From Thermoanaerobaculia bacterium (GTDB taxonomy: Bacteria; Acidobacteriota; Thermoanaerobaculia; Gp7-AA8), in NCBI GenBank assembly GCA_963719365.1, contig OY970380.1, positions 1,038,903 to 1,102,902 of the forward strand: 64,000 bases of DNA, given 5' to 3'. A program made the translations under genes and the position numbers. This document shows, in pieces, positions 1 to 38,964 of the stretch. The notes beneath the pieces were generated by a model. That model did not search any database and was not told the DNA's origin. It was given only the letters and a program-made list of their open reading frames with translations. The number at the start of each line of letters is the position of its first letter. Position 1 is the stretch's first letter.

Positions 1-204
1 AGCGATGTCAAAGCGCACGACGTTCTGCTGGAACGACAGATTCTTATCCGTAGTTACGAGAACATCGAACTGTTGCTCGGCGAGTTTGAGCAACGCACCG
101 TTGACGGTCTCACTCCATCCCGCCTGACGCACCGTCTTCACATCATGGCCCGGCAGGTCTCGAAGAAGACGCCAATCGACGCACTCATCAAGCAGAATCT
201 TCAT
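1..204 (-). CDS. DUF5615-like (PIN-like/Mut7-C) putative toxin, 3' part cut by window edge
   Basis: Reverse-strand translation from ATG at 204-202 reads MKILLDECVDWRLLRDLPGHDVKTVRQAGWSETVNGALLKLAEQQFDVLVTTDKNL..., typical DUF5615 N-terminus. Its start overlaps the stop of the upstream DUF433 gene by 4 bp (ATGA). Confidence 0.6.
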   Translation of the reverse strand, partial: MKILLDECVDWRLLRDLPGHDVKTVRQAGWSETVNGALLKLAEQQFDVLVTTDKNLSFQQNVVRFDIA

Positions 205-431
205 CCTGCTTCTGCCAGTACGCGCGCTTTGGTTTCCTCGAGAAACGTAATCACTTGCTGGCGGCTCACTGAAGGAAAGCCTTCGAGAAAGTCCTCGATT
301 GATTCGCCGCCTTCCAAATAATCAAGGAGGTTCTCGATCGGAACGCGCGTTCCGGCGAAGACAGGCGTTCCACCCATCACATCGACTGAGGATGCGACGA
401 CCATGCTCTTCATCGCGCGAAGTATCGCCAA
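201..431 (-). CDS. DUF433 family protein (putative antitoxin partner of DUF5615)
   Basis: 76-aa ORF containing GTRVPIENLLDYLEGGESIEDFLEGFPSVSRQQV, characteristic of DUF433. Translationally coupled to the downstream DUF5615-like ORF. Confidence 0.7.
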   Translation of the reverse strand: MAILRAMKSMVVASSVDVMGGTPVFAGTRVPIENLLDYLEGGESIEDFLEGFPSVSRQQVITFLEETKARVLAEAG

Positions 432-504
432 TTTCGTTCGCGATGCAAAGCCCGCCTCCGCGCCTACGAACAGCCTTCCCCACCACCCAACCCCCTGCCC
501 AAAT

Positions 505-535
505 CTTCGAAAAGCGTGTTCGAAAAATCGAAATT
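505..535 (+). promoter_or_regulatory. Conserved upstream motif copy 1 (tcgaaaagcgtgttcgaaaaatcgaaa), upstream of first Che-operon gene
   Basis: Near-identical 27-nt string recurs at 8519-8549 upstream of the second MCP gene. Contains three TCGAAA(A/T) direct repeats. Confidence 0.3.
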
Positions 536-646
536 CACGCCGATTCCAATCTCGATCGTTCGGTCTAATCCATTGAACAGATAGATATTTGCGGTCCGCT
601 GAGACCGTGCCATGACGTGGCCGTGCCGTTGCGATAGACGGCGGTC

Positions 647-1048
647 ATGAACCCTTGCACTCAATCCCGTCCCAGTCCGAGGATGCTGCTCGTTGAAGAC
701 GAGGTCGTCCTTCTTTCGGCTCTCAAGAAGTACTTCACTCGCGAAGGATATGCGGTCGATTGCGCACGTGAGCTTGAGGAAGCGGAAGCGCTGATCGCGA
801 CCTCGTTCTACGACGTCGTCATCGCCGATCTGCGGCTCTCCGGCACCTACGCCGTCGAAGGTCTGGCGATTCTGCGCTTCGTCCGCCACAACTCGCGCGG
901 CACGCGCGTCATCATCCTCACCGCGCATACGGCGCCCGGAATTCAGCGCAGCGCGCACGCCCTCGGTGCCGAGGCGTTTCTGCCGAAGCCGACGCCGCTC
1001 GCTGACATTGCGGCCTGCATTGACCGGCTGATGGGGGTGGCATCGTGA
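647..1048 (+). CDS. Response regulator receiver (REC-only) protein
   Basis: LLVEDEVVLLSALKK...VVIADLRLSG...LTAHTAPG...AFLPKP matches the CheY-like receiver domain. Alternative start at 683 (MLLVEDE). Stop overlaps the GTG start of the EAL gene (GTGA). Confidence 0.85.
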   Translation: MNPCTQSRPSPRMLLVEDEVVLLSALKKYFTREGYAVDCARELEEAEALIATSFYDVVIADLRLSGTYAVEGLAILRFVRHNSRGTRVIILTAHTAPGIQRSAHALGAEAFLPKPTPLADIAACIDRLMGVAS

Positions 1049-1818
1049 CGCGCCACACGCTCATCGACGACATCTTCGCGCCGGGCGGACTCACGATTCT
1101 GTTCCAGCCGATCTTCGAGATCGTGAACGGCGATCCGGTGCTCTTCGCACTCGAAGCGCTGTCGCGCGGACCGAAAGGCTCGAACGTCGAATGCGCGAAT
1201 GTGCTGTTCGAGTACATCCGGCGCAAAGGAAAGGAAACCGAGGTCGATCGTGTGTGCATCGCACGTGCGGTCGCGGCAGCAGCGAGCGTGCCGGGATCGC
1301 CGGCGATCTCCATCAACGTTCATGCGTCGACGCTCGAGCGCGATCCGCATTTCGCCGCGTTTCTTAGCGACGTCTGCAACAGAAACGGCGTGCAGGTCTC
1401 GCGAGTGATTCTCGAGATCGTGGAGCAGCAGAAGTTCTTTGACGAGCGCGCGTTCTTCGCTGCCCTCAGCGACCTGCGCGCACTCGGCGTCCGCATCGCG
1501 CTCGACGACATCGGCATCGGCTACTCCAGCCACCGCATGCTCATCGAAGTCCGTCCTGACCTTTTCAAGATCGATCGTTACTTCATCACCGGAAGCGCGG
1601 AGAACGAGTACTCGCGCGCGGCCATCGAATCGATCGCCCTCCTCGCCACACGGCTCGGCGGCCGCGTCGTCGCCGAGGGCATCGAGGCGCCTGCCGACTT
1701 CGAGACCGTCACCGCGCTCGGCATCGATCTCGTGCAGGGCTACTACTTCGCGCGTCCCTCTTTCCCGGCATCGTTCGGTGCCGCACCCACTCATTACGAA
1801 TCGTCCGCGACTCACTGA
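1045..1818 (+). CDS. EAL-domain c-di-GMP phosphodiesterase (stand-alone EAL)
   Basis: EAL signature residues present: FALEALSRGP, ISINV, ILEIVEQQ, ALDDIGIGYSS, LFKIDRYFI, VVAEGIE, GIDLVQGYYFARP. Confidence 0.85.
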   Translation: MTRHTLIDDIFAPGGLTILFQPIFEIVNGDPVLFALEALSRGPKGSNVECANVLFEYIRRKGKETEVDRVCIARAVAAAASVPGSPAISINVHASTLERDPHFAAFLSDVCNRNGVQVSRVILEIVEQQKFFDERAFFAALSDLRALGVRIALDDIGIGYSSHRMLIEVRPDLFKIDRYFITGSAENEYSRAAIESIALLATRLGGRVVAEGIEAPADFETVTALGIDLVQGYYFARPSFPASFGAAPTHYESSATH

Positions 1819-1833
1819 AAAGGAGCAATGCTC

Positions 1834-2226
1834 ATGAACCGAAAAAAGATTCTGCTTGTCGATGACTCCAGCACGATCCTCATGATGGAGAAGTTCATCC
1901 TGAGGAACGGGCCCTACGATCTCGTCACGGCGACGAACGGCGAGGAGGGCGTGCGGAAGGCTTCCGAACATCTCCCCGATCTCATTCTGCTCGATGTGAT
2001 CATGCCGAAGATGGGCGGCTTCGAAGCCTGCCGGCTGATCCGCAGCGCCGAGGACACGAAGGAAATCCCCATCATCATGGTCACGACGCGCGGTGAAGCA
2101 GCCAACGTCGAAGCCGGATGGGCCAACGGCTGCACCGACTACGTGACCAAGCCGATCAACTCGATCGAGCTGCTCGCGAAAGTCCGCAACTTCCTCGGCG
2201 ACGCTGCCTCGGAGGTGCTCCAGTGA
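1834..2226 (+). CDS. cheY: CheY-like single-domain response regulator
   Basis: KILLVDDSSTILMMEKFIL...DLILLDVIMPKMGG...IIMVTT...YVTKP. AGGAG RBS 8 nt upstream of ATG 1834; an in-frame ATG at 1828 has too short a spacing. Confidence 0.88.
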   Translation: MNRKKILLVDDSSTILMMEKFILRNGPYDLVTATNGEEGVRKASEHLPDLILLDVIMPKMGGFEACRLIRSAEDTKEIPIIMVTTRGEAANVEAGWANGCTDYVTKPINSIELLAKVRNFLGDAASEVLQ

Positions 2227-3078
2227 GCGCGGACGACAAGAACCGCTCGTACGTCACCGTCGTTCGCGAAGAGCTGCAGCAGTACACGCAGGGACTTCTT
2301 CGCGAGAACGAAAAACTCCGGGCCATGGCAACCGCGCTCGAAAGCGACAAGCGCCGCCTGGAGCTGGAGATCATCGAAGCGCGTGTCGTTCTTGATCAGC
2401 AGGAAGAGCTGCGCAAGGCCACGGAAAACTTCGAGGCTGCGCGCGCGGAGATGCTGACCGAGGTTGCGCGGCTCGTGCAGGCGCGCGACGCAGCCACGCG
2501 CGAGCTCGATCTTCTTCGCACTCGCATCGGCGACGTCGAGCGCGAGAACGAAACGTACGCAGCGCAGTACCACCAGATCGAAAACCAGAGCAGCAATCTG
2601 TCGAACCTCTACGTCGCCTCGTACCAGCTTCACGCCAGCGTGGAGCGGGAGACGGTGCTCAGCACGATTCAGGAGATCGTCGTCAATCTGATCGGCTCCG
2701 AGGAAGTGGCCATCTTCGAATTCTACGAGGACGCCCGCGAGTTCCGCCTCTCCTCGTCGTTCGGCGTCGACAGGATGAAGCTGAAGAGCTTCAAAAGCCG
2801 GCAGCGGTCCGATCGGAAAATGCCTCATCGGCGGCGAGGTCTTCGTCAACGATGAAGTCGCCGGTGGTGATGACAAGCTCACCGCGTGCGTGCCGCTGAA
2901 GATCGGCGAGCGCATCATCGGCGCCATCCTCGTCTTCCGTCTGCTCGAGCACAAACAGGGATTGCAGGCCGTCGATCACGAGCTGTTCGAGCTGCTCTCG
3001 ATCCACGCATCGACCGCGCTCTACTGCGCCAATCTTCACAGCCAGGTAGCCAATACGCCGTTGGCGGTGCTGGCGTGA
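2223..3078 (+). pseudogene. Coiled-coil / GAF-domain protein, reading frame interrupted by an apparent +1 frameshift at an A4 run (2793-2796)
   Basis: Frame-0 ORF (GTG 2223, overlapping cheY stop) encodes a coiled-coil N-terminus and the GAF start QEIVVNLIGSEEVAIFEF..SSSFGVD. The frame-1 ORF ending at 3078 encodes the remainder of the GAF domain, GSGPIGKCLIGGEVFVNDE...VPLKIGERIIGAILVFRLL. Removing one A from ttcaaaagcc joins them into one continuous GAF protein of about 285 aa. Confidence 0.55.
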
Positions 3079-3125
3079 GCGCGCTCGAAGCCGGCGGCGA
3101 ACTGCCGATCGACGAAGGCGAGGTG

Positions 3126-3587
3126 ATGAAGCGGGTCTATCTCTATCCGGGACAGATCGTGACTTCGGGCCAGCCGCTCATGGTCAGCACCATCCTCGGG
3201 TCCTGCGTCTCGATCTGTCTCTGGGATCCGGCAGCAAAGATCGGCGGCATCAATCACTATCTGTTGCCCAACAACCCGCTGCCCAACAATTCGAACGGGC
3301 AGTCCGACCTTCGCTACGGCAACACGGCGATCGAACGGCTGATCGAAAAACTCCTCGGGCTCGGCGTGAAGAAGCAGCGGCTCGTGGCCAAGATCGTTGG
3401 CGGCGCGTCGATCCTCACAAGTTTCACCGACACGCGCAAATCGATCGGCGACCAGAACGTCGATGTCGCCCGGACGCTTCTCGCGAAACACGGAATCAAC
3501 GTGAGCGGCGAGCAGACCGGCGGCACGCGCGGGCGAAAACTTCTCTTCCACACCGGCAACGGCTGCGTCTTCAGCAAGGAGATTTGA
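3126..3587 (+). CDS. cheD: Chemoreceptor glutamine deamidase CheD
   Basis: MKRVYLYPGQ...MVSTILGSCVSICLWDPAAKIGGINHYLLP is the CheD signature. About 153 aa. Confidence 0.85.
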   Translation: MKRVYLYPGQIVTSGQPLMVSTILGSCVSICLWDPAAKIGGINHYLLPNNPLPNNSNGQSDLRYGNTAIERLIEKLLGLGVKKQRLVAKIVGGASILTSFTDTRKSIGDQNVDVARTLLAKHGINVSGEQTGGTRGRKLLFHTGNGCVFSKEI

Positions 3588-3589
3588 CG

Positions 3590-5239
3590 ATGAACGCCTT
3601 CCCCATCAGCGACGCCGATCGCCTGCAGCTCATCGATGCGTTCGTCGCCGAGACCGATGACGTCCTCGACGAGATCGAGCAGCTTCTGCTGCGTCTCGAA
3701 CAGAACCCCGAAGAAGATCAGCTCCTGCACGAGATTTTCCGCGGCGTCCACACGCTCAAAGGCAACGCGGCGTGTTTGCAGTTCGATGAATTGACGCGCT
3801 TCGCACACGTCATGGAGGAGTTGCTGGATGGCATGCGCGAAGGACGGCTCGACGCCACCACCGCGCACGTCAGCCAACTGCTCGATGCCGCCGATGCACT
3901 GCGCGACATCGCGGTGCGCTCGGTGAACGGCGACGGCACGCTGAGCGAGCGGCAGGAAGAGCTCCTCGCGCAGGTCGCCGCGTGGCAGACCAACGGCGGC
4001 AAAACGAGCAGCACCCTCGCCGGCAACGGCAACATATCCGCGCAAGAGCCGGCGCGCGCATCGCGTCCGTCGCGCAGTCTCCGCGTCGGCATCGACAAGC
4101 TCGATCGCATGCTCAACCTCGCCGGCGAGATCGCCACGATCCGCGGCACGGTGCGGCAACTCGTCGAGCAGAGCGGCAACGACGAGAAGACGCTCGACGC
4201 CGTTCGCGAGCTCGATCGCCTCAGCTTCGACTTGCAGGAATCGATCATGAACGTGCGGCTCGTGCCGGTCGGGCCGTCACTTCGACATTTTCACCGCGTC
4301 GTGCGCGACCTCGCTTCGTCGCAGGACAAGCGCGTGATGCTCGTGCTCGAAGGCGAAGACGTCGAAGTCGACACGACCGTCATCGAGCAACTGAAAGATC
4401 CGATCACGCACATGATCCGCAACGCGGTCGATCACGGGATCGAACTGCCGAACGTGCGTCTTGGCAAGGCAAAGAACCCCATCGGCACGATCCGCATCGC
4501 CGCGGCGCACGACTCCGGCGGCATCATCGTCCGCTTCTCCGACGACGGCGCCGGCCTGAACGACGCCAAAATCGCCGAGCGCGCCCGCGCACTCGGGCTC
4601 GATCCCGAACGGATGTCGCGTCAGGATCTTTGGGACCTGACGCTCCGTCCCGGATTCTCGACCGCGAGCCAGGTCACCGATCTCTCGGGCCGCGGCGTCG
4701 GGATGGACGTCGTCCGCCGCAATGTCGACTCGATGCGCGGAACGCTCCGCGTCCACTCCGAGCCCGGCGCCGGCACGACCGTCGAGATCCGCCTGCCGTT
4801 GACCGTCGCGGTCATCGAAGGTTTCGCGGTCGGCGTCGCGGACGAGACGTACGTGATTCCGATCGACAACGTCATCGAATGCACCGAGATGCCTGTTGGT
4901 GGCAACGACGCCAGCGGAGTCATCGATCTTCGCGGCGAGCCGCTGCCGTTCCTCCGCATCCAGCGCATCTTCGGACTCGACGCCTCGCCGCACGCTCGTG
5001 AAAACGTCGTGGTTGTGGAGCACAGAGGAGGCGGCGGACGCGCCGGAATCGTCGTCGACACGCTCTTCGGAAGCAGCCAGGTGGTCATGAAACCGATGGG
5101 CCGCTTCCTGCGCCAGGTCGACGGCGTGGCCGGTTCCTCAATCCTCGGAAACGGGCGCGTGGCCCTGATCCTCGACGTCCAGCAAATCATCAACCGGGCT
5201 GCGGAGGCCGCGGCAACACAAGCAAGGAGTCACTCATGA
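3590..5239 (+). CDS. cheA: Chemotaxis histidine kinase CheA
   Basis: HPt motif HTLKGNAA, dimerisation/HATPase region ([20 protein letters not shown]) and C-terminal CheW-like domain. An in-frame TTG at 3584 is an alternative start. Confidence 0.9.
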
Positions 5240-6966
5240 GCTTCAATATCCGCCGCCGGCTCGTCGCCGGATTCCTCACGGTCGTCATCCTCGGCGCCGG
5301 CGTTTGCTTCGCCGTCCTGCAACTGCTCACCACCAGCATCCGCCAGCTCGAGAGCGTCGTCACCGTCTCCGACGCCATTCGCGAACGCGGTCTCAAGCTC
5401 CGCTTCGACATGATGACCATGAGCGACGGCATGCGCGGCTACCTCCTCGATCCGGAGGACAAAAAAGAGCTCCAGCGCAAGCGCGACGCCAACGAGGAGT
5501 TCAACAAGGATGTCCTCGAGATTCAGAGGCTGGCGCCCGCGGGCGAAGTTCGCGACCTGATCGGACGCGCCGCCGAGATGGACTCGCAGTCCGTCAACCG
5601 CCTGGAAGACGAAGTACTGCAGTTAGTCAGCGACAAGAAAATCGAGCTGGCAAAGCAGAAATACATCGCCGAATACCTCCCCGTCCGCCACACGCAGGAA
5701 GAAGTCATCGGCCAGATGGAGAAGGCCACCGACAAGCTGGCAACGCAGGCGTTCACCGCGGCGCAGAGCCGCTATCAAACGGCGCTCATCCTCACCTACG
5801 TGCTGGTCGCGCTCCTCGTGATCATCGGAACGATTCTTTCGATCTTGATCTCCTCGGCCATCGCCAAGCCGGTCGTTCGCATGGCGCAGTCGGTGCGCCG
5901 CGCGGCCAAAGGCGACGTCGGCGATACGCTGGAGTTCGACGATCGCGCCGACGAGCTCGGAGAACTGAGCCGGTCGATGAACGCGATGTACGGGTACCTG
6001 ACGTCGATGGTCGCGACCGCGGAACGCATCGCCGCCGGTGACCTGAGCGTCGACGTGCAGCCCCGTTCCGATGCCGACAGCTTCGGTATCGCATTCTCGA
6101 AGATGGTGGCGCGCCTCGTCGAAGTCATCGGCCAGGTTCGCAGCGCATCCGGCTCACTTTCGTCAGCGGCCTCGCAGGTGTCGGCCACCGCGCAGACCGT
6201 GTCCAGCGGCAACAGCCAGCAGGCCGCGGCGGTGCAGGAGACGACGTCGAGCCTCGAGCAGATGAACGCCTCGATCGCGCAGAACGCGCACAACAGCCGG
6301 CAGACCGAATCGATGGCTGTGAAGGGATCACGCGACGCCGAAGAGACCGGCGCCGCCGTGCAGGAAACGGTGGAAGCGATGAAGTCGATCGCCGCCAAAG
6401 TCTCCATCATCGAAGAGATCGCCTACCAGACCAACCTTCTCGCATTGAACGCCGCAATCGAAGCGGCGCGCGCCGGCGAGCACGGACGCGGCTTCGCCGT
6501 CGTCGCCACCGAAGTCCGCAAGCTGGCGGAGCGCAGCCAGAGCTCTTCGCGCGAGATCGGCGCACTCGCCGCCGCAAGCGTGAAAGGTGCCGACCGCTCC
6601 GGAACGCTGCTGTCCGAGCTCGTGCCGGCGATCCGGCGCACGTCGGAGCTCGTTCAGGAAGTGGCCGCGGCATCGAACGAACAGGCTGGCGGCGTGGCCC
6701 GCATCAATCGTTCGCTGATGCAGGTCGACCAAGTCACCCAACGCAACGCCTCGGCATCCGAAGAGCTGGCCGCAACCGCCGAAGAGATGGCCGCGCAGGC
6801 CGACGGTCTTCAAGGCCTCGTCGAGTTCTTCCGCATCGGAAACGAACAGAAATTGCCGGTAGCGCATAAGCCGGCCGTCGTCGCCGCAAAAGCGCCGATC
6901 GTCGTCAAGCCTTCGAAAGGCAACGGAAACGGCGGCGCGCACTACGCCAACTTCGGGAGCTTCTGA
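5236..6966 (+). CDS. Methyl-accepting chemotaxis protein (two TM, HAMP, MCP signalling domain)
   Basis: Highly conserved MCP core [46 protein letters not shown]-terminal TM, periplasmic region, second TM and HAMP. ATGA overlap with cheA. Confidence 0.9.
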
Positions 6967-6968
6967 AC

Positions 6969-7814
6969 ATGAAACGCTTACTCAGATTCTTCGCCCGAAT
7001 CCTCGCGCGGTTCGCGCCAGGCCGCGCGCGCAAACGCAAACGGTCGGTGCAGTACCTGCTCTGCCTGATCCTCGTGGCGCTGCCGCTCGCAGCACAGACG
7101 CCAACGCCGATCCAGGACAACAGTTTTCTCATCGAGGAGGCATACAACCAGGAAGCTGGGGTCGTGCAGCACATCCAGACGTTCTCGCGCGCCACGCGGG
7201 GCGGCGACTGGGCTTACACGTTCACCGACGAATGGCCGGCACCTGGATTGAAGCATCAGCTCAGCTACACGTTGCCGGTGGCCCAGATCGACGGCGCGCA
7301 CGGTGCCGGAGATATCGCCCTCAACTATCGCTATCAATGGATCGGTGATGGCGACTCGCGCCTGGCCGTCTCGCCGCGAGTAACTGTTCTTCTTCCGACC
7401 GGCAGTTCGCGCCGCGGCCTCGGCAACGGCGGAGTCGGTTGGCAGGTAATGCTTCCTGCCAGCACGGTCCTCTCGCCGTCGCTCGTCGCGCACTGGAACC
7501 TCGGCGCAACAGTGACGCCTTCGAGCAACACACATGCAATCACCGCCGGCCAGAGTTTCGTCTGGCTCGCCAATCCTCGCTTCAACCTGCTCGTCGAGAC
7601 GCTCTGGACTCGAACCTCCGATCGAACGGGACACGAGTCGCAATTCACAGTGAGCCCCGGCGTCCGATGGTCGTATGACCTTCCCCACCATCTCCAGGTC
7701 GTTCCGGGAATCGCCTTGCCAATGACCAATCACGGCGGCGGAAAGTCGCTGTTTCTCTACCTCAGCTTCGAGCACCCATTCAAACAACTACAAGGAGCAA
7801 ACAATGTTCAGTAA
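6969..7814 (+). CDS. Putative outer-membrane beta-barrel protein (MetA-pathway/phenol-degradation-like transporter family, tentative)
   Basis: Signal-peptide-like N-terminus, alternating amphipathic beta-strand pattern, Gly/aromatic-rich sequence with no cytoplasmic motifs. Family assignment from resemblance only. Confidence 0.5.
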   Translation: MKRLLRFFARILARFAPGRARKRKRSVQYLLCLILVALPLAAQTPTPIQDNSFLIEEAYNQEAGVVQHIQTFSRATRGGDWAYTFTDEWPAPGLKHQLSYTLPVAQIDGAHGAGDIALNYRYQWIGDGDSRLAVSPRVTVLLPTGSSRRGLGNGGVGWQVMLPASTVLSPSLVAHWNLGATVTPSSNTHAITAGQSFVWLANPRFNLLVETLWTRTSDRTGHESQFTVSPGVRWSYDLPHHLQVVPGIALPMTNHGGGKSLFLYLSFEHPFKQLQGANNVQ

Positions 7815-8496
7815 CTACAAAACCGTAGCCCGCGCCCTTGCGGTGGCGATCATTTCCATTGCATGCATCACCTCGGCATCCGCGGCAACACTCTCTGCAG
7901 AAACGTGGCGCAAAGCGGTCAACGAGAATGCCGCCAGCCTCAAGAAAGGCGATTACAACAACGCACTCACGACAAGCGATCGCGTCCTCGCCGAAATGGT
8001 CAAATTCCTCGGCGCCGGCACAACCGAAGATGAAATGCTGGCCACTGTATTGACGCAGAAAGCGCTCGCTCAGGCCGGACTCGGAAACATCAACGAAGCT
8101 CTCTGGTATTGGTATATCGCGCAGGAGATTTCGCCGGCCGCGGCGAAGAGCGATCTCTCAGGCTTTGGCGCTCCCGGCGAATTTCTCAAACGGCATCCTT
8201 TTGTGATCGCGGATCCAAATCCTGGTCGCGGAACGACGCCGGCCCGTGTTCTCAAGCAGGTCGTGCCAAGCTTTCCGTCCGGCGCTTCGCGATTTGGCGC
8301 GGGCGATCTCATCGTCCACATCGTCATCGATCGCAATGGCTCGCCAACCTTGCCGCATATCGTTCATCCGCTTCCCGCGCCAACGCTTTCCTTCGTCGCT
8401 CTCGAGGCCCTGAAGCACTGGCAGTTCGCGCCCGCGAAGCAGAACGGCGACTCGGTTTCCTTCCCCTTCAATCTCACGGTTCATTACAAGCTGTAG
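7804..8496 (+). CDS. Secreted protein with TonB C-terminal-like domain
   Basis: Signal peptide (AIISIACITSASA), then C-terminal KQVVPSFPSGASRFGAGDLIVHIVIDRNGSPTL...ALEALKHWQFAPAKQNG resembling the TonB_C fold. Overlaps the preceding OMP gene by 11 bp. Confidence 0.6.
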   Translation: MFSNYKTVARALAVAIISIACITSASAATLSAETWRKAVNENAASLKKGDYNNALTTSDRVLAEMVKFLGAGTTEDEMLATVLTQKALAQAGLGNINEALWYWYIAQEISPAAAKSDLSGFGAPGEFLKRHPFVIADPNPGRGTTPARVLKQVVPSFPSGASRFGAGDLIVHIVIDRNGSPTLPHIVHPLPAPTLSFVALEALKHWQFAPAKQNGDSVSFPFNLTVHYKL

Positions 8497-8518
8497 CCGC
8501 GCGCCGGCCTTGCACAAA

Positions 8519-8549
8519 GACTCGAAAAGCGTGTTCGAATAATCGAAAA
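8519..8549 (+). promoter_or_regulatory. Conserved upstream motif copy 2 (tcgaaaagcgtgttcgaataatcgaaa), upstream of second MCP
   Basis: Matches 505-535 at 26/27 positions. Confidence 0.3.
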
Positions 8550-8732
8550 GCGCGCGCTAGCAAGATCCGCATCGCATCCCCAAGTGATTTCTACCCAATT
8601 AGTTACCTCACATGCCGGAGGTTCGCGCCAAGTGGTCTCCTCGTTGCGATCTTCGGTAGTCAGACAAGCCATTTCCCTTCGTCAATCATCAACCGCCGGA
8701 CCTAACCATTCATCAGGAGCATCGAAAACATC

Positions 8733-10490
8733 ATGTTCACCAACTGGAAAATCGGAAAGAGACTGGGGCTGGCCTTCGGGATCAGCATCATCCTGGTCGC
8801 AGTCGTCGCAGTCGCCGGCTTCTGGGGCCTTTCGCAGGCGGTCCAAACCACGTACGGAATCCTCCATCACGACGCCAAGATGATGGAGCAGGCCTCACAG
8901 GCGCAAGCCAACGGCCTCGGACTGCGCCGCTATGAAAAGGATTACTTCCTCAACATCGGCGACAAAGAAAAAGAAGACGGCTACAAAGACAAATGGAACA
9001 AGGAGCATGCCGACCTCCTCGAGAACATCAACACCCTCGACAAAGTAAGCACGCTTCCCGAGGACAAAGAACTATTGAAGTCGCTTCTGGCGGACATGTC
9101 CACCTACACCATCGGCTTCCAATCGGTGCAAACGCGGATCGACGATAAGAAAATCAAAACTCCCGCCGAAGCGAATGACGCGATGGTGCCGTTCAAAGAC
9201 GAGATCCGGCGCCTCGACACCACTCTTGAGGCCTTTGCGGCCACAAACGTCGAGCGCATGAAAGCCAAAGAGAAGGTCGTGGCCGATGCCGAGGCGCGCA
9301 CCCGCAGCGTCATGTGGGTTGTCTTTGCAATCGGGATCGTTCTCGTTTCCTTTATGACCGTCGCCGTGACCCGCAGCATCACGCAGCCGATTCTCAGTGT
9401 CGTCAAGATTGCTGAGAAACTCGCCGAGGGCCAGACCGACTTCGAGATCGAATCGCGCGGCAAAGACGAAACCGGCGCACTGCTCACCGCAATGAAGCAG
9501 ATGATCGACTCGAATAATGAAATGGTCGCAGCAGCCACCGGCCTCGCCTCCGGAGATCTCTCCGTCCGCGTTACGCCTCGCTCCGATCACGACGCCCTCG
9601 GCACCGCCCTCTCCAACATGATCGAGCGTCTGACCGAGATCATCGGCGAAGTCCGCAGCGGTGCGTCCTCGCTCACCGTCGCCTCGTCGCAGATTTCGCA
9701 AAGCGCGCAGTCGCTCTCGCAGGGCACCAGCGAGCAGGCTTCGTCAGTCGAAGAGACCACCTCGAGTCTCGAAGAGATGAGCGCGTCGATCACGCAGAAC
9801 GCCGAGAACAGCCACCAGATGGAAACGATGGCCGTCAAGGGAACCAAAGACGCCGAGGAGAGTGCGCAGGCCGTCAAGCAATCCGTGGAGGCCATGACTA
9901 AGATCGCCGAGAAGATCTCCATCATCGAAGAGATCGCCTACCAGACCAACCTGCTCGCGCTGAATGCCGCCATCGAAGCAGCGCGCGCCGGCGACCACGG
10001 ACGCGGCTTCGCTGTCGTGGCAACCGAGGTTCGCAAACTCGCCGAGCGCAGCCAGGCTGCGGCAAAAGACATCGGAGCGCTGGCAACATCCAGCGTTGAC
10101 GTCGCCCAGCGTTCCGGCCGTCTGCTCATCGAGCTCGTGCCGACCATCCGGAAGACTGCCGACCTCGTTCGCGAAGTCACCGCTGCGTCGATCGAACAAT
10201 CCGGCGGCGTCGCGCAGATCAATCGCGCCATGACGCTCGTCGATCAGGTCACGCAAAAGAACGCCTCGGCATCCGAAGAGCTGGCCTCGACTGCCGAAGA
10301 GATGTCCTCGCAAGCCGAGGCGCTGCAGCAGACGATCTCGTTCTTCAAGAGCTCCAACGGCGGCCACAACGCCGCGCACCGGCCGCGCGAAACGGCCACT
10401 CCTGTCGCTCCCTTCCGCAACGTTCGTCCGGTCCCCGCCGCCGCGGCCAGCGCCACTCCGGCGACCTACGCCGACTACACGCATTTCTAG
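8733..10490 (+). CDS. Methyl-accepting chemotaxis protein (paralogue of 5236-6966)
   Basis: [45 protein letters not shown]; HAMP; two TM segments. Confidence 0.9.
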
Positions 10491-10493
10491 GAG

Positions 10494-11045
10494 ATGACGA
10501 TGAACAGCACGTTAGTAGTGAAGTCGCTCAATCAATACTTGACATTTTTCCTGGCAGGAGAGGAGTACGCGCTCTCGATCCTGCAGGTCACCGACATCAT
10601 CGAATGCGGCGTTGTGACGCGAGTCCCGGGCACGCCGCCCTGGATCCGCGGCGTCCACAACCTGCGCGGAACGGTCGTGCCGGTGATCGACCTGGCCATC
10701 AAGTTCGGTCTGCCGCCGACCGAGATCACGCGCAGAACATGCGTCGTGATCGTCGAGTTGCACGTCGATGACGAAGCGCTGGTGATGGGCGTGATGACGG
10801 ACTCCGTGCATCAGGTCGTCGAGCTCGCACCCGATCAGATTCAGGCAGCGCCAGCGTTCGGTCCGCGCGTTCGCGTCGACTGCGTACTCGGCATGGCCAC
10901 GAGCAACGGCAAGTTCGTCGTGATCCTCGACATCGACAAGATTCTCGCGACCGAGGAGATTCTGACCGCGGTTACTGCGGCGATCGAGGATCAGCCGAAC
11001 GTTCCTGCCGGGCTTTCCACAAGCGCGTACGTTTCTGTTGAGTAA
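10494..11045 (+). CDS. cheW: Chemotaxis coupling protein CheW
   Basis: QYLTFFLAGEEYALSILQVTDII...IRGVHNLRGTVVPVIDL is the CheW-like domain. Confidence 0.9.
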   Translation: MTMNSTLVVKSLNQYLTFFLAGEEYALSILQVTDIIECGVVTRVPGTPPWIRGVHNLRGTVVPVIDLAIKFGLPPTEITRRTCVVIVELHVDDEALVMGVMTDSVHQVVELAPDQIQAAPAFGPRVRVDCVLGMATSNGKFVVILDIDKILATEEILTAVTAAIEDQPNVPAGLSTSAYVSVE

Positions 11046-11051
11046 AACGCC

Positions 11052-11918
11052 ATGATCGACGCCAACGCCATCCGTCCGCTGTCTGACCGCGAATTCCGGT
11101 CGCTGCAGGAGCTCATCTATCGCGAGGCCGGGATTCATCTGTCCGAGGCGAAGAAAGCGCTCGTCAGCGGACGGCTGACAAAGCGGCTGCGCGCCCTCGG
11201 TCTCGACAATTTCAAGGACTATTACGAACAGGTCGAATCGAATGCCGACGAGCGCACGCTCATGCTCGATTGCATCTCGACCAATGAGACGCGCTTTTTT
11301 CGCGAGCCGAAGCAGTTCGAGTTTCTCGAAGCGACGGTGTTGCCGCATTGGCGCGCCCTCGGCGACGCCGGAACCATCCCGAAGAGAATTCGCGTCTGGA
11401 GCGCCGCCTGCTCCACCGGCGAAGAGCCGTACACGCTCGGCATGGTTCTCGGGACGCATTTTCCGGACAGCGAAGGATGGTCGGTCGAGATCCTGGCGTC
11501 CGATCTGTCGACGCGCGTTCTCTCGGCCGCTCGCGAAGGCGTCTGGCCCATCGAGCGCAGCAACGACATCCCCGAGCGCTTCCGGAAAGCGTGGATGCTG
11601 CGCGGGATCCGCAGCGAAGAAGGCCGCATGCGCGCGCATCCGCGGCTGAAATCGATGATCGAGTTCCGCCGCATCAATCTCAACGATCGCAATTACGCAA
11701 TCCGCGATTCCTTCGATCTGATTTTCTGCCGCAACGTCCTCATTTACTTCAACCGCGAATCGAAAACCGATGTCATCAATCGCCTGACGCAGCACTTGTC
11801 GCCGGCGGGACTTCTGTTCCTCGGACACGCAGAGAGTCTGACCGGAACCACTCACACCCTCGAGCACGCAGGCCCAACCGCCTATCGCCGCGCGCAACGT
11901 CACCAGCAGGCGTCGTAA
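11052..11918 (+). CDS. cheR: Chemotaxis protein methyltransferase CheR
   Basis: N-terminal CheR helical domain plus SAM-MTase motifs IRVWSAACSTGEEPYTLGM and FDLIFCRNVLIYF. Confidence 0.9.
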   Translation: MIDANAIRPLSDREFRSLQELIYREAGIHLSEAKKALVSGRLTKRLRALGLDNFKDYYEQVESNADERTLMLDCISTNETRFFREPKQFEFLEATVLPHWRALGDAGTIPKRIRVWSAACSTGEEPYTLGMVLGTHFPDSEGWSVEILASDLSTRVLSAAREGVWPIERSNDIPERFRKAWMLRGIRSEEGRMRAHPRLKSMIEFRRINLNDRNYAIRDSFDLIFCRNVLIYFNRESKTDVINRLTQHLSPAGLLFLGHAESLTGTTHTLEHAGPTAYRRAQRHQQAS

Positions 11919-11933
11919 AGAAAAGGAGCATCC

Positions 11934-13016
11934 ATGCGAGCGTTCCATCCGTTTCTCAAGCCACTGGCCTGCGCAATCGCGCTCTTCGGCAGCGTTGCCG
12001 TCAACGCACAAACGCCGCCGTCGCCTGCCGACGCGCCATCTTTCAAAATCGGCGCGACGATTTTCGGCGACTACACCTACGTCGCCAATCCCGTTTCGAA
12101 AGACAGCGACGGCAACGTCATTCATCCCGATTCATTCAACGTGAGCCGCGCATACCTCAATCTGACCGGCCAGCTTAATCACTACATTTCATTTCGAATT
12201 ACTCCCGACATCGCCCGCGAAACAGGCAGCGGAAGCTCGCTCAATGGCTCGCAGACGTTCCGTTTGAAATACGGTTTCGCGCAACTGAATCTCGACGATT
12301 GGACGACAAAAGGCTCCTGGGTCCGCCTCGGCGTGCAGCAAACGCCGCTGCTCGACTACACGGAAGGGATCTATCGTTATCGCTTCCAGGGCACGATGTT
12401 CATCGAGCGCGAAGGATTCGTTACGTCGTCCGACGCCGGACTTTCGGGTCACTACAACATTCCCAACGACTACGGCGATATTCACGCCGGCATCTATAAC
12501 GGCGAGGGCTACAGCAAAGCGGAAGCGAATAATCAGAAGGCGCTGCAGATTCGCGGAACCCTGCGTCCACTGCCAAAGTCCGCGCTCGGAAAAGGACTGC
12601 GCGTTACCGCCTTCTATGACGATGACAATTACGTAAAAAGCGCCGTGCGTGAGCGGTTTTTGCAGCAGGTGACTTACGAACACGCACGCTTTACCGCCGG
12701 TTTCGAACATCTCAACACGAAGGACCAGACGTCCGCGGCGGGACGCGAAGTCACCGGCAACGGCTGGTCGGTGTGGCTCACTCCCCGTCTGACGAATGGC
12801 TGGGAATTGCTTCTGCGCCACGACGAAATGAAGCCCGATTCGTCCACGTCGCAACAACGCCGCCGCAACATCGCCGGCATTGCCTACTGGATTCCGAATC
12901 TGCAGAAAATGTCGTCGTCAGTCCTGCTGGATTACGACTCGCTAGAACAACAGAACTACAGCGTGCCGCGCCCGCGCGACACGCGCGTCGGACTGAAAAT
13001 GCTCGTGCAGTTCTAA
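11934..13016 (+). CDS. Putative outer-membrane porin-like beta-barrel protein
   Basis: Signal peptide (AIALFGSVAVNAQ), beta-strand-rich alternating pattern, C-terminal aromatic residue (..MLVQF) typical of OMP barrels. Confidence 0.55.
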   Translation: MRAFHPFLKPLACAIALFGSVAVNAQTPPSPADAPSFKIGATIFGDYTYVANPVSKDSDGNVIHPDSFNVSRAYLNLTGQLNHYISFRITPDIARETGSGSSLNGSQTFRLKYGFAQLNLDDWTTKGSWVRLGVQQTPLLDYTEGIYRYRFQGTMFIEREGFVTSSDAGLSGHYNIPNDYGDIHAGIYNGEGYSKAEANNQKALQIRGTLRPLPKSALGKGLRVTAFYDDDNYVKSAVRERFLQQVTYEHARFTAGFEHLNTKDQTSAAGREVTGNGWSVWLTPRLTNGWELLLRHDEMKPDSSTSQQRRRNIAGIAYWIPNLQKMSSSVLLDYDSLEQQNYSVPRPRDTRVGLKMLVQF

Positions 13017-13028
13017 CGGCAGATCACG

Positions 13029-14102
13029 ATGACACCGCGGCTGCAGCTTCTCGTCGTCGACGACTCGGCGGTCATGCGTCAGGCCATGATCGCCATCTGC
13101 CGCCGCGATCCCGGCATCGAAGTCAGCGTCGCCGCCGATCCGCTCATCGCCCGCAACAAGATGCGCCACAACCGGCCCGACGTGATCCTGCTCGACATCG
13201 AGATGCCGCGCATGGACGGCCTGACATTCCTTCGCCAGTTGATGGCCACCGATCCGATTCCGGTGGTCATCTGCTCGGCGCTGGCCGGACGCGGAACGCA
13301 GACTGCGCTCAAGGCGCTCGAAGAAGGTGCGGTCGAGATCGTGGCCAAGCCGCGCGTCGCGCTGCACGACTTCCTCAACGAATCGACGGAGATGCTGATC
13401 GAAACGATCCGGGCCGCCGCACACGCCCGCGTCCTCCCGCGCCTGCCGGCGATGGTCATCGAGAAGCGTCACTCTCCCGACGTCATCCTGCCGGCAGCGC
13501 GCGCGTCGCTCGCACGCACCACGCGCAAAGTCGTCGCAATCGGCGCATCGACCGGCGGCACCGAGGCGCTGCGCGAGATTCTGGAGAGCATGCCGGGCGA
13601 TGCGCCGGGCATGGTCATCGTGCAGCACATGCCCGAAGTTTTCACCGCCGCGTTCGCGCAGCGCCTGAATCAAACCTGCCGGATGGACGTGAAAGAGGCC
13701 GCCGACGGCGACCGCATCATCGACGGCCGCGCGCTCATCGCTCCTGGCAATCGCCACATGCTCGTCCAGCGCGACGGCGCTGAGTATCGCGTCGCACTCA
13801 ACGACGGCCCACTCGTCTCGCGCCACAAACCTAGCGTCGATGTCCTCTTCCGCTCGGTCGCGCAATCGGCGGGAAGCAACGCCATCGGCGTCATCCTCAC
13901 CGGCATGGGCAACGACGGCTCCACGGGCCTCCTCGAAATGCGCACCGCCGGCGCCATCACCTTCGCGCAGGACGAAGCATCATGCGCCGTCTTCGGAATG
14001 CCCCGCGAAGCCATCGCCTGCGGCGCCGTGCAATCGGTGCATTCGCTCAGCGCAATGGGAGGCGCAATTCTGTCGGCCAATGAGCGAATGCGGGGAAGGT
14101 AA
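13029..14102 (+). CDS. cheB: Chemotaxis response regulator protein-glutamate methylesterase CheB
   Basis: REC domain ([10 protein letters not shown]...[12 protein letters not shown]) plus CheB methylesterase motifs ([28 protein letters not shown]). Confidence 0.9.
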
Positions 14103-14108
14103 ATCGCC

Positions 14109-14345
14109 TCACCGCACGGTGACGCCCATGAGTTCTCTCATCTTCCGAACGTCTTCTACAGAATCACCACGACCCACCTTGATCCGCCCTTGGCGATCGA
14201 GGAATGAGCGTCTGGCAGCGCTTACCAGAACGCGGTTCCCCACCAACTCCCACTTCAACACATCGCCAGGTCCGACTGCCAGTGCCTTTCGAATTTCTTT
14301 CGGCACCGTCGTTTGATGGCGTTTTGTAATCGTGGATTTATTCAT
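14109..14345 (-). CDS. AbrB/MazE/SpoVT-type DNA-binding protein (antitoxin-like), no adjacent toxin gene
   Basis: MNKSTITKRHQTTVPKEIRKALAVGPGDVLKWEL matches the swapped-hairpin AbrB-type domain. Start placed at the internal MNK (14345) rather than the longer ORF start (14393). Confidence 0.55.
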   Translation of the reverse strand: MNKSTITKRHQTTVPKEIRKALAVGPGDVLKWELVGNRVLVSAARRSFLDRQGRIKVGRGDSVEDVRKMRELMGVTVR

Positions 14346-14389
14346 CGGGTCCTCTCTGAGCCTAGGTGGTTCCTGTTCCCGCCGCCGAA

Positions 14390-14540
14390 GCACTCGGGCG
14401 GGACGCCCGAGTGCCCGCGGGCGAAGACGCCCGCACTCCTCAGATTACCGCGAACGCAAAAGGAGTGCGGACGTCTCGTCCGCGGCCGGCGGGCGTCCTC
14501 GCCCGCCGGTGTGTCCCGACCGAAGCCGGCACGCTCGTTC
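14390..14540. other. Cluster of four stable GC-rich hairpins in an intergenic region
   Basis: cactcgggcg-gga-cgcccgagtg; gcgggcg-aaga-cgcccgc; actcct..aggagt; ccggcgggc-gtcctc-gcccgccgg. Lies between the exonuclease stop and the AbrB-like start on the minus strand. Confidence 0.3.
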
Positions 14541-14543
14541 TCA

Positions 14544-15365
14544 TCAAGAACACAGGCGAGAAACTCTTGCAGACAACCGCGCATCGCCGGTCTTCTCCGC
14601 CATCGCTGCGAATGACGATGTCGCTCCCTGCCAGTGCAGCTCTTCAACGTCATCGAACAGTGGCGCATCGATTCGCAGTGTTGCCAGGTTCTTGAACAGC
14701 AGGGCCAGTTCGCGGCGATCACCATCCAGCACCGAAGCGGGAAACTTCTCGATCGGACCGTGTCGCTTAATCAAATCCGCGGCCGTCTTTGCTCCGATGC
14801 GCGGAATGCCTGGATAGCCGTCCGCGGCGTCGCCGACCAGCGCGAGGTAGTCGGGAATCAGCGCAGGGGCCACGCCGAACTTCGCGCGGACGCCGGCATC
14901 GTCGCGGATCTGGCCGCTTTTGCGATCGACTTGCACGACACGGTCGTCCACCACGCATTGCGCGAGATCCTTGTCCGGCGTCCAGATGCAGACTTTCTCC
15001 ACACGTGAATCGGCTGCCGCGAGATGTGCCGCCGAGGCGAGGGCGTCGTCGGCTTCGAGCTCGATCATCGGCCAAGTCGTTACACCCATCGCCACCAACG
15101 CTTCTTCCAGCGGATGGAACTGCCGCCACAGGGCGTGATCGATTCCCGCGCCGGTCTTGTAGCCGGGCCAGAGATCGTTGCGGAAGGACTCGATGATGTG
15201 ATCGGTGGCCACGCCGACGTGCGTCGCGCCCCCTTCGAGCATCTGCACGACGGTACCGAGAACGCCCGCAACCGCGCCGAACGGCGGATCGCTCTTCTTG
15301 AAACGGCGGATTCCGTAGAAGTGGCGAAACAGCTCGTAAGTGCCGTCGATGAGGTGAACGATCAT
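14544..15365 (-). CDS. 5'-3' exonuclease / flap endonuclease family (Pol I N-terminal-domain-like)
   Basis: MIVHLIDGTYELFRHFYG (N-terminal catalytic region) and H3TH region LVGDAADGYPGIPRIGAKTAADLI. Start set at the internal ATG 15365 with GGAGG RBS; the 388-aa ORF has a non-homologous N-extension. Confidence 0.8.
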   Translation of the reverse strand: MIVHLIDGTYELFRHFYGIRRFKKSDPPFGAVAGVLGTVVQMLEGGATHVGVATDHIIESFRNDLWPGYKTGAGIDHALWRQFHPLEEALVAMGVTTWPMIELEADDALASAAHLAAADSRVEKVCIWTPDKDLAQCVVDDRVVQVDRKSGQIRDDAGVRAKFGVAPALIPDYLALVGDAADGYPGIPRIGAKTAADLIKRHGPIEKFPASVLDGDRRELALLFKNLATLRIDAPLFDDVEELHWQGATSSFAAMAEKTGDARLSARVSRLCS

Positions 15366-15374
15366 GTTCTTAGT

Positions 15375-15440
15375 ATGGGGGTGGGGAGTTGGGGGTGGGG
15401 AGTGGAAGTTAGAACTCCCACTCCCCACTCCCGACACCCC
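15375..15440. repeat. GGGGAGT-heptamer-based imperfect palindrome (G4-capable G-tracts on + arm, C-tracts on - arm)
   Basis: gggggtggggagttgggggtggggagtggaagttagaactcccactccccactccc. About 20-bp arms with one mismatch. Same family as 38965-39055. Confidence 0.5.
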
Positions 15441-15536
15441 ACTCCCCGTAAAGAATGTAAGGCCTTCGTGACGGACCTGTGTATCCGTCGAACTATCGCG
15501 AGATCCTGCCGTACTCATCGGCCAAGGAGAAACACC

Positions 15537-15698
15537 ATGGACTTCGTAGCGGTGCTGCTGTTGGTTGCGTCTCTTTCCGGTGTGACGGCGTTTGCGACGA
15601 CCGATCGAGGAGCGGGGCTCGATCCGAACGGAGGCGCTTCCGTGACCTCGGCTTCGGCGAATACCGACAAAGGATTGGGCGTCGATCCGAACGGGTAA
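15537..15698 (+). CDS. Small ORF 1 (53 aa): hydrophobic N-terminus + repeated G-x-G-(L/V)-DPNG motif
   Basis: AAGGAGA RBS 7 nt upstream of ATG. MDFVAVLLLVASLSGVTAFATTDRGAGLDPNGGASVTSASANTDKGLGVDPNG. Paralogous to small ORF 2. Confidence 0.45.
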   Translation: MDFVAVLLLVASLSGVTAFATTDRGAGLDPNGGASVTSASANTDKGLGVDPNG

Positions 15699-15721
15699 GG
15701 CGTCAGTCAAAAGCGGTCACG

Positions 15722-15785
15722 CGGAGGCGCGGAGATGCGGAGAAAAGCATCTTCGCGCCTTCGCGCCTTCGCGTCTTCGCGTGAC
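15722..15785. repeat. CTTCGCG-heptamer palindromic repeat (REP-like) immediately after small ORF 1
   Basis: gtcacgcggaggcgcggagatgcggaga-aaagca-tcttcgcgccttcgcgccttcgcgtcttcgcgtgac. Tandem CTTCGCG units with an inverted copy upstream. Confidence 0.5.
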
Positions 15786-15904
15786 ACGTCAACGTCTCGG
15801 CAAGCAAGAGCCGCGTATTCGCAACGACCGCGGCGTTGCGATCGATCAGATGGCGGCCGGTCCGCAATACTCACGAAGCTCATTTCACAATAGGAGAAAC
15901 GCCA

Positions 15905-15988
15905 ATGGATCTCGCAGCTCTGCTTCTGCTGATTGCCTCCCTCCTCGACGGCACCGACGCCGGACCCAGAATCGATCCTGAGGGTTGA
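15905..15988 (+). CDS. Small ORF 2 (27 aa), paralogue of small ORF 1
   Basis: AGGAGA RBS 8 nt upstream of ATG 15905. MDLAALLLLIASLLDGTDAGPRIDPEG shares N-terminal MD(F/L)xA(V/L)LLL(V/I)ASL and C-terminal (L/I)DP(N/E)G with small ORF 1. Below the 60-aa cutoff of the supplied ORF track. Confidence 0.4.
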   Translation: MDLAALLLLIASLLDGTDAGPRIDPEG

Positions 15989-15998
15989 GTTGACGCCA

Positions 15999-16048: not shown

Positions 16049-16077
16049 AACGAGCCCCAACGTATACTCCCCACCTC

Positions 16078-16749: not shown

Positions 16750-16793
16750 AACAAAACGGACGGAACTCACCTAAAATAGCCTCGCCAACCCGC

Positions 16794-37642: not shown

Positions 37643-37645
37643 ATC

Positions 37646-38956: not shown

Positions 38957-38964
38957 GCAGGAAG

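Follow-up and report, generated by a model that had tools for sequence, protein, structure and literature searches.

Gene content of the cluster

The window, i.e., the whole stretch of DNA analyzed in this study, comprises 64,000 nucleotides (nt) of contig OY970380.1 (assembly GCA_963719365.1, positions 1,038,903 to 1,102,902 of the forward strand) from a Thermoanaerobaculia bacterium of the Acidobacteriota. Listing of the open reading frames (ORFs) and Pfam scans showed that positions 647 to 14102 are filled by 14 consecutive genes on the plus strand, which form a chemosensory (Che) cluster in the order REC1, EAL, CheY, X, CheD, CheA, MCP1, OMP1, TonBC, MCP2, CheW, CheR, OMP2, and CheB. REC1 is a receiver, EAL a predicted phosphodiesterase of cyclic di-GMP (c-di-GMP), and X a protein with coiled-coil and GAF regions; MCP1 and MCP2 are methyl-accepting chemotaxis proteins (MCPs), OMP1 and OMP2 are predicted outer membrane proteins (OMPs), and TonBC is a secreted protein with a TonB C-terminal domain. 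All genes named in a preliminary description of this DNA were found, on the plus strand throughout. The junctions between them are either 4-bp overlaps or gaps of 2 to 15 nt, apart from a single long spacer of 236 nt before MCP2, and the 11-bp overlap of OMP1 and TonBC reported earlier was recovered. The genes had been described as tightly spaced or overlapping, which is correct for most junctions; it does not apply to the TonBC-to-MCP2 spacer, which carries a σ54-like motif.

The domains that characterize Che-type systems, i.e., those of CheA, CheW, and the MCP signaling region, all gave Pfam matches well over the cut-offs. The histidine kinase CheA (3584 to 5239) consists of the P1, P3, P4, and P5 regions (Hpt, H-kinase_dim, HATPase_c, and CheW in Pfam). 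It has no Pfam-detectable domain between P1 and P3, and it ends with the CheW-like domain, without a C-terminal receiver. CheW itself is located at 10494 to 11045 (PF01584, 121 bits). The adaptation proteins are represented by the methyltransferase CheR (11052 to 11918; CheR_N and CheR), the methylesterase CheB with a receiver domain (13029 to 14102; Response_reg and CheB_methylest), and CheD (3075 to 3587; PF03975, 95.5 bits), all of them over the Pfam cut-offs. With NCBIfam, the CheB subfamily model was over its cut-off, and the best match of CheD was the CheD model with 128.8 bits, which is below the equivalog cut-off.

The boundaries of three genes were set by comparison with orthologs from related loci, which are designated here by L numbers. 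The ORF of REC1 opens at 647; its real start is probably the ATG at 683, which gives a protein of 121 amino acids (aa) matching the orthologs of L151 and L152. CheD starts with the GTG at 3075, not at 2886, as placed by its orthologs of 165 to 172 aa, and this start overlaps the stop codon of X. Gene X (2223 to 3078 after correction of a frameshift; delimited by ortholog comparison with tblastn) contains a 1-bp insertion in the window, where the A-run at 2793 to 2796 reads AAAA versus AAA in L085, L089, L090, L091, and L125. In tblastn, the intact ortholog of L084 matches the window in two reading frames. The orthologs of X have 279 to 284 aa and contain GAF_2/GAF_3, with an intact 284-aa protein in L151 and L152. 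The indel is due either to a sequencing error in the homopolymer or to pseudogenization in the very recent past.

Conservation of the cluster and modularity of its center

Orthologous loci were collected by a scan of a genome collection with an OMP1 alignment, by a scan of a metagenome collection with a TonBC alignment, and by individual contig look-ups, and the window proteins were mapped onto all loci by tblastn. Conservation of the cluster extends to about 50 loci, which derive from Thermoanaerobaculia-like metagenome-assembled genomes (MAGs). The closest homologs of OMP1, TonBC, and OMP2 stem from soil metagenomes and from MAGs labeled Thermoanaerobaculia or Acidobacteriota at NCBI. An invariant head, REC1-EAL-CheY-X-CheD-CheA, and an invariant tail, CheW-CheR-CheB, enclose a modular middle part.

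The architecture of this middle part was recorded for the 29 loci in which the whole region between CheA and CheR is covered; some of these loci are near-identical, so that the counts are not fully independent. Specifically, 11 of the 29 show MCP1-OMP1-TonBC-MCP2, eight contain TonBC-MCP2 only, three have MCP1-OMP1-CheW-TonBC-MCP2, three combine TonBC-MCP2 with a downstream CheR-OMP2-CheB arrangement, and the remaining four are four different single variants. Three further loci stand outside this census: L151 and L152 possess exactly the full architecture of the window, and L153 reads MCP1-OMP1-CheW-MCP2-CheW-CheR-OMP2-CheB, with no TonBC. Losses of individual parts were also observed. In L124, MCP1 is lost and OMP1 is kept. 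In L001 (7882 to 8286, on a 550-kb contig), a deletion extends from inside X to the start of MCP1, so that CheD and CheA are gone, and REC1-EAL-CheY, MCP1-OMP1, and CheW-CheR-CheB are kept; this cluster may be decaying or may be served by a CheA encoded elsewhere. The recurrence of the OMP and TonB-C genes in the orthologous clusters answers the question, raised in the preliminary description, of whether they are fortuitous insertions: they are not. As judged from gene order, the envelope genes are recurrent, modular partners of the cluster, each of which tracks one receptor.

The output module REC1-EAL-CheY

At the head of the cluster, two single-domain receivers, REC1 (683 to 1048; PF00072, 69 bits) and the CheY-like protein (1828 to 2226; PF00072, 86.7 bits), flank the stand-alone EAL protein (1045 to 1818; PF00563, 154.6 bits). 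EAL aligns over its full length to stand-alone VcEAL (6ifq), the closest solved structure, and this alignment reveals a complete motif set (EAL, N, ExxE, DD, KxD, EGxE, and QG). Across 29 distinct orthologs, none of the 13 catalytic and metal-binding positions checked varies. In the receivers, D61, T92, and K114 of REC1 are invariant in 27 orthologs, and the same is true of D56, T86, and K108 of CheY, i.e., the phospho-acceptor aspartate, the threonine, and the lysine, in its orthologs. The proposal of a Che cluster with an EAL phosphodiesterase is therefore upheld, with a complete Che set and an EAL protein predicted to be active from its 13 invariant positions. Pfam detected no GGDEF domain inside the cluster. 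Rfam returned no RNA family for positions 1 to 17000, and a c-di-GMP riboswitch in the spacers is thus not supported.

It had also been considered that REC1 and EAL were once fused; for the lineage of the window, such an origin is not demonstrable. They form separate genes, joined by a conserved 4-bp overlap, in the window and in L001, L083, L084, L085, and L151, which led us to reject a recent frameshift splitting a REC-EAL gene in this lineage, and in the distant locus L031 they lie in different frames. When 1.8 billion representative proteins were searched exhaustively, relatives of this EAL proved to be mostly stand-alone proteins of 250 to 280 aa. Fused forms occur only in more distant relatives, and their pattern mirrors the gene order REC1-EAL-CheY: in the REC-EAL fusions P0378, P0396, P0410, P0446, and P0473, the receiver matches REC1 best, with up to 41% identity, and in the EAL-REC fusions P0363 and P0375, the C-terminal receiver is 52 to 59% identical to the CheY of the cluster. 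These fusions support the view that REC1-EAL-CheY is one functional unit with EAL as its regulated output; they speak for a functional link between REC and EAL, not for a direction of evolution.

The two receptors

Both receptors are transmembrane proteins. MCP1 (5236 to 6966) comprises HAMP and MCPsignal domains, and MCP2 (8733 to 10490) was found with Pfam to possess a 4HB_MCP_1 sensor domain. Alignment of MCP1 to Tsr of Escherichia coli, a receptor of the 36-heptad class (36H), revealed two symmetric 7-residue deletions, one on each arm, which assigns MCP1 to the 34-heptad class (34H). The cytoplasmic part of MCP2 aligns to that of MCP1 without gaps, and MCP2 is therefore 34H as well. Receptors of this rare class are assigned to F8 systems in the literature (PMC11253619, PMC7184735). 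The orthologs of MCP1 are 69 to 70% identical even where CheA is only 44 to 47% identical. Both receptors end with a conserved pentapeptide-like motif, D[FY]xxF, that follows a Pro/Ala-rich linker (6940 to 6966 and 10464 to 10490); the C-termini read ANFGSF in MCP1 and ADYTHF in MCP2 of the window, and ADFGSF and DYTHF in orthologs. These motifs are possible tethering sites for CheR and CheB.

OMP1 accompanies MCP1

The gene of OMP1 (6969 to 7814) starts directly behind that of MCP1. It encodes a predicted 12-stranded barrel of the COG4313/FapF type that matches PF13557 with 27.5 bits (cut-off, 22). The AlphaFold model is a β-barrel with a mean predicted local distance difference test (pLDDT) value of 82.6, and its top Foldseek matches are the 12-stranded FapF (5o65) and the COG4313 channel Pput2725 (4rl8), with template modeling scores (TM-scores) of about 0.6 and E values down to 1.7e-9. 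The sequence identity to FapF and Pput2725 is only 11 to 17%, and neither profile nor phmmer searches identified a credible relative of OMP1 among the PDB sequences.

At 56% identity or more, 20 of the 26 homologs of OMP1 are encoded directly downstream of MCP1. As for the other six, one follows CheA (L124), two meet contig ends (L045 and L137), and three are located outside Che clusters (L003, L004, and L005). An OMP1 relative is also present between cheA and mcp in a locus of Gemmatimonadaceae (L047). The closest homolog outside Che clusters (L003, 9836 to 13834; 71% identity) is followed by a membrane-bound PAS-PAS-HisKA-HATPase-REC hybrid kinase, which hints that this subfamily pairs with sensors more generally. 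Most homologs with 55% identity or less, from Holophagae, Terriglobia, and Gemmatimonadota, have no link to signaling genes, and the wider OMP1 family is not generally linked to MCPs: an MCP gene is adjacent in 6 of the 80 loci from the genome collection, and four of these six belong to the cluster type described here.

TonBC accompanies MCP2

TonBC (7804 to 8496; PF03544, 42.7 bits) combines a TPR-like region with the TonB C-terminal domain. Its predicted structure (pLDDT, 86) features a signal sequence, three TPR-like helical hairpins (residues 32 to 129), and a TonB C-terminal domain fold (residues 148 to 228). With Foldseek, the C-terminal domain matched that of TonB bound to FoxA (6i97_D) with a target-normalized TM-score of 0.81; in profile searches, TonBC matched TonB2 (2k9k in the PDB, 3e-10) and also TIGR01352. 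The N-terminus reads as a signal peptide ending with ASA, in which no His is conserved and the SxxxH anchor is missing, and the TPR-like helical domain takes the place of the Pro-rich spacer of TonB. No exbBD genes were found in the orthologous loci fetched. Without the SxxxH anchor, a proline-rich spacer, and an exbBD neighbor, TonBC is not an energy-transducing TonB.

The association of TonBC with MCP2 is strict. All 44 homologs with at least 50% identity are encoded in this cluster, 42 of them directly upstream of MCP2 and the other two at a contig end. The subfamily occupies the same cluster position down to 53% identity, and the gap to MCP2 is 11 to 60 nt in most lineages. The upstream neighbor of TonBC varies (n = 42), being CheA in 19, OMP1 in 17, and CheW in 6 cases. 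Homologs with 48% identity or less were found outside Che clusters, beside metabolic genes and not beside sensor genes.

These data do not bear out the envelope-spanning device of OMP and TonB-C proteins envisaged in the preliminary description. MCP1-OMP1 occurs without TonBC in L001, L031, L057, and L153, and TonBC-MCP2 occurs without MCP1-OMP1 in 11 fully covered loci. A single envelope-spanning unit of OMP1 and TonBC was consequently rejected; the two are independent of one another, and each tracks its own MCP.

OMP2 and its phosphate-linked relatives

OMP2 (11934 to 13016), the porin-like protein noted before between cheR and cheB, passes the Porin_O_P model (PF07396) of the OprO/P family only marginally (23.6 bits; cut-off, 20.9), and a single-sequence search of the PDB with OMP2 gave nothing useful. 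The CheR-OMP2-CheB order was also found in L085, L089, L125, L151, L152, and L153, which represent two lineages. Paralogs with 61 to 64% identity are located directly upstream of pstS-pstCAB-phoU-phoB and near ppk and ppx (L149, 8001 to 9098; L150, 8001 to 9104); they probably function as the phosphate porin in this group of Acidobacteriota. In both loci, the pstS genes beside the porin are duplicated. The Che-linked copies of OMP2 form two groups and the pst-linked copies a third, with about 51 to 63% identity between the groups.

σ54-like elements

A σ54-type promoter-like motif, TGG-N8-TTGCG, is located on the plus strand upstream of REC1 (618 to 633). All 36 orthologous loci that were checked, 33 of them distinct, have TGG-N8-TTGC at the equivalent position, and this holds even for the distant loci L031 and L057. 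A second such motif (TGGTCTCCTCGTTGCG; 8633 to 8648, plus strand) lies in the TonBC-to-MCP2 spacer. It is restricted to the clade that has a spacer of 228 to 276 nt; in an alignment of the spacers of eight relatives, TGG and TTGCGAT are invariant, and the intervening bases vary. Exactly 111 nt upstream of each motif, there is a 27-nt block, TCGAAAAGCGTGTTCGAA(A/T)AATCGAAA, on the plus strand. The first copy (TCGAAAAGCGTGTTCGAAAAATCGAAA; 507 to 533) and the near-identical second copy (8522 to 8548), which is part of a highly conserved block in the alignment of eight spacer sequences, are candidate sites for an enhancer-binding protein. By number alone, σ54-like motifs are not enriched in the window over the chance expectation (7 motifs versus 4.5 expected); the evidence is positional.

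The shared upstream flank of the cluster often encodes a PAS histidine kinase and a σ54 activator; the pair is located just upstream in L001, L083, L085, L151, and L152, and the window begins downstream of the activator position. The pathway is thus probably under σ54 control, and the "operon" of the long-spacer clade probably consists of two co-regulated σ54 units, as suggested by the motifs and their spacing. A scan for σ70 promoters and intrinsic terminators yielded counts at or below the shuffle expectation and, for this reason, says nothing about operon structure.

Flanking genes

Downstream of the cluster, a 5′-3′ exonuclease is often encoded; L085 and the window also share an M50 peptidase and a large PAS/GAF-GGDEF-EAL protein. 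In the window, the latter is a protein of 1365 aa (16494 to 20591) with multiple PAS and GAF domains, GGDEF, and EAL, and it has the same position in L085. Farther downstream (31606 to 40804) are genes for a LytR_cpsA_psr protein, a NAGPA phosphodiester glycosidase, an 858-aa TPR protein followed by a GT2 glycosyltransferase, and a GAF-HD-GYP protein (HD_5), a possible exopolysaccharide and c-di-GMP neighborhood. On the minus strand at 1 to 410, two small ORFs resemble, by eye, a toxin-antitoxin pair of the DUF433/DUF5615 type. They are situated between the expected position of the σ54 activator and REC1; in L151 and L152, the cluster is surrounded by other toxin-antitoxin genes.

Proposed function

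Taken together, the gene content, domain folds, intact catalytic residues, conserved pairings, and promoter motifs that we observed are best explained, with a probability of roughly 0.6, by a conserved Che-type pathway of soil Thermoanaerobaculia-like Acidobacteriota that has 34H receptors, c-di-GMP hydrolysis as output, and envelope proteins as ligand gates or co-sensors. In this pathway, the two paralogous 34H transmembrane MCPs would sense periplasmic signals, each with an envelope accessory of its own. OMP1, translationally coupled to MCP1, would admit or report the cue sensed by MCP1, and TonBC may act as periplasmic co-sensor or adaptor for MCP2. OMP2, which is present in some lineages, could be an additional gate through which an anion, e.g., phosphate, enters as ligand. 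The signals would be passed on via CheW and CheA, with adaptation by CheR, CheB, and CheD. CheA is expected to phosphorylate REC1 and CheY, whose genes flank EAL, and these receivers would in turn regulate EAL and thereby the hydrolysis of c-di-GMP. X is a universal core component. The non-flagellar output suggested in the preliminary description is a plausible possibility.

A more specific proposal is that TonBC is an obligate periplasmic co-receptor of the 4HB receptor and, together with the dedicated COG4313/FapF-type channel of the sister receptor, represents a new class of chemoreceptor accessory proteins. We put this forward tentatively, as a possibility that we judge to be rather improbable. 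If true, such a class would link outer membrane transport or transporter state directly to a c-di-GMP-degrading Che pathway.

Several observations weigh against the proposed pathway. Each accessory module is dispensable somewhere: 11 loci are without MCP1-OMP1, MCP2 occurs without TonBC in L057 and L153, and OMP2 is confined to two lineages. The wider OMP1 and OMP2 families consist mostly of proteins without a link to Che genes, and a role in export would be just as compatible with the FapF-like fold of OMP1. The G+C content at third codon positions (GC3) is 0.68 to 0.73 in the envelope genes (6969 to 8496 and 11934 to 13016) versus 0.76 to 0.84 in the che genes. If the indel in X is real, the cluster of the window could be decaying. 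Finally, the single-domain CheY and the 34H receptors would also fit the control of motility, as described for F8 systems (PMC11253619, PMC7184735). As to the lower GC3 of the three envelope genes, it could reflect the codon usage of secreted proteins or a separate origin.

Motility control is the alternative that fares best, and we consider it unlikely. The cluster would then encode a taxis system of the F8 type that steers flagella or pili via CheY; REC1 and EAL would form a side branch or act as a phosphate sink, and the role of the envelope proteins would be confined to improving ligand access. The 34H class of both receptors, which the two papers just cited tie to F8, the single-domain CheY, the full set of CheR, CheB, and CheD, and the pentapeptide-like C-termini of the receptors are all in line with such a system, whose role in taxis is, however, itself unclear (PMC11253619). 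Also against motility control, a scan of those ORFs of the 64-kb window that have 250 aa or more detected no flagellar or pilus gene, other organisms possess direct fusions of CheY-like receivers to this EAL subfamily, and REC1-EAL-CheY is the invariant head of the cluster.

Less probable still is a pathway that monitors the state of the envelope, in the manner of an inverted Wsp system. TonBC would bridge OMPs, via its TonB_C domain, and MCP2, via its TPR region, OMP1 would touch MCP1, and the pathway would report envelope perturbation or transporter occupancy, and not a diffusible chemical, and would lower c-di-GMP. The canonical fold of the TonB C-terminal domain, the module that binds the TonB boxes of OMPs, combined with a TPR-like protein-binding domain in one protein, would suit this role, as would the strict adjacency of TonBC and MCP2. 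The Wsp system also provides a precedent (PMC8846402), being Che-type, with a 4HB_MCP receptor, surface sensing, and control of c-di-GMP. On the other hand, TonBC is present in 11 fully covered clusters without an OMP gene between CheA and MCP2, and any outer membrane partner would therefore be encoded elsewhere.

It is very unlikely that the envelope genes are mere passengers, i.e., ordinary nutrient-uptake genes kept by linkage in a permissive operon and without a signaling role: the lower GC3, the many OMP1 and OMP2 family members outside Che clusters, and the absence of MCP1-OMP1 from L089 and L125, whose CheA is 93 to 94% identical to that of the window, would agree with this explanation, but the TonBC subfamily is exclusive to this cluster, with a constant position down to 53% identity, the MCP1-OMP1 adjacency is kept where CheA is 44 to 47% identical (L031 and L057) and recurs in Gemmatimonadaceae (L047), the start-stop overlaps or gaps of 0 to 60 nt point to translational coupling, and the conservation of these pairings over such deep divergence counts strongly against it.

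The Che-type pathway with c-di-GMP hydrolysis as output thus remains the preferred explanation. To our knowledge, nearly all that is known of Che pathways controlling c-di-GMP comes from Wsp, a system that makes the messenger, and signaling in the host group, abundant and uncultured Acidobacteriota of soil, is almost unstudied. The cluster provides the clearest case that we found in comparative genomics for dedicated, co-inherited envelope partners of chemoreceptors. It bears on the question of how ligands pass the outer membrane to reach chemoreceptors and on the evolution of indirect sensing, and the strict pairings provide testable protein pairs, MCP1/OMP1 and TonBC/MCP2. In the literature searched, we found no description of Che clusters with MCP-paired outer membrane barrels or TPR-TonB_C proteins and none of this system in Acidobacteriota, and likewise no relevant work on chemotaxis in Thermoanaerobaculia.

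Comparison with known systems

Indirect chemoreception is established for the route from LamB via MalE to Tar in E. coli and for PstS with CtpL in Pseudomonas aeruginosa. In the known cases, channel and binding protein belong to uptake operons and not to the che cluster. The logic proposed here is alike in that the ligand enters through an outer membrane channel and is handed to the MCP by a periplasmic protein; it differs in the periplasmic partner, which is a solute-binding protein there and a TPR-TonB_C protein here. As for the channel, OMP1 resembles the COG4313 protein Pput2725 and FapF in fold (TM-score of about 0.6) and in its match to PF13557, whereas the low sequence identity (11 to 17%) and the pairing with an MCP set it apart, the latter being new.

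The EAL protein has its closest counterparts in RimA of Pseudomonas and VcEAL of Vibrio cholerae, which are likewise single-domain EAL proteins of about 250 aa with complete catalytic motifs. It is not an ortholog of RimA, as the RimA model yielded 118 bits versus a cut-off of 430, and, unlike both proteins, it is partnered with receivers of a Che pathway.

With the F8 system of Pseudomonas syringae (cluster II; PMC11253619), the cluster shares 34H receptors, pentapeptide or pentapeptide-like C-termini, and a compact che cluster. In the literature searched, we encountered no F8 cluster reported to contain EAL, GAF, OMP, or TonB_C genes.

EAL outputs had been called uncommon for Che clusters, in agreement with the survey of CheR-TPR clusters in PMC3447774, whose counts for these clusters include one EAL regulator and about 20 GGDEF regulators; EAL-output Che clusters are thus already documented, but rare. 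According to the same source, which cites Wuichet and Zhulin (2010), clusters of the alternative cellular function (ACF) type with REC-EAL response regulators exist. These are alike in linking a Che cluster to an EAL domain and unlike in that REC and EAL are separate, translationally coupled genes in the cluster described here.

The closest functional analogies are the LamB-MalE-Tar route and the Wsp system of Pseudomonas (WspA to WspF and WspR). Wsp is a surface-sensing Che-type system of the ACF class that controls c-di-GMP (PMC8846402). Wsp and the cluster described here have in common a transmembrane MCP of the 4HB type, CheW, CheA, CheR, and CheB, and an output that changes c-di-GMP and not flagellar rotation. 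They differ in several respects. Specifically, CheA lacks a fused receiver, whereas a WspE-like hybrid is typical, though not strictly defining, of ACF systems, and the cluster additionally possesses CheD, the coiled-coil/GAF protein, 34H receptors, and internal envelope genes. Wsp employs a REC-GGDEF cyclase, in contrast to the stand-alone EAL protein with two separate receivers found here, an output of opposite sign. The cluster of the window presents itself as a well-conserved natural counterpart to Wsp, with a split REC/EAL/REC output that is predicted to destroy c-di-GMP.

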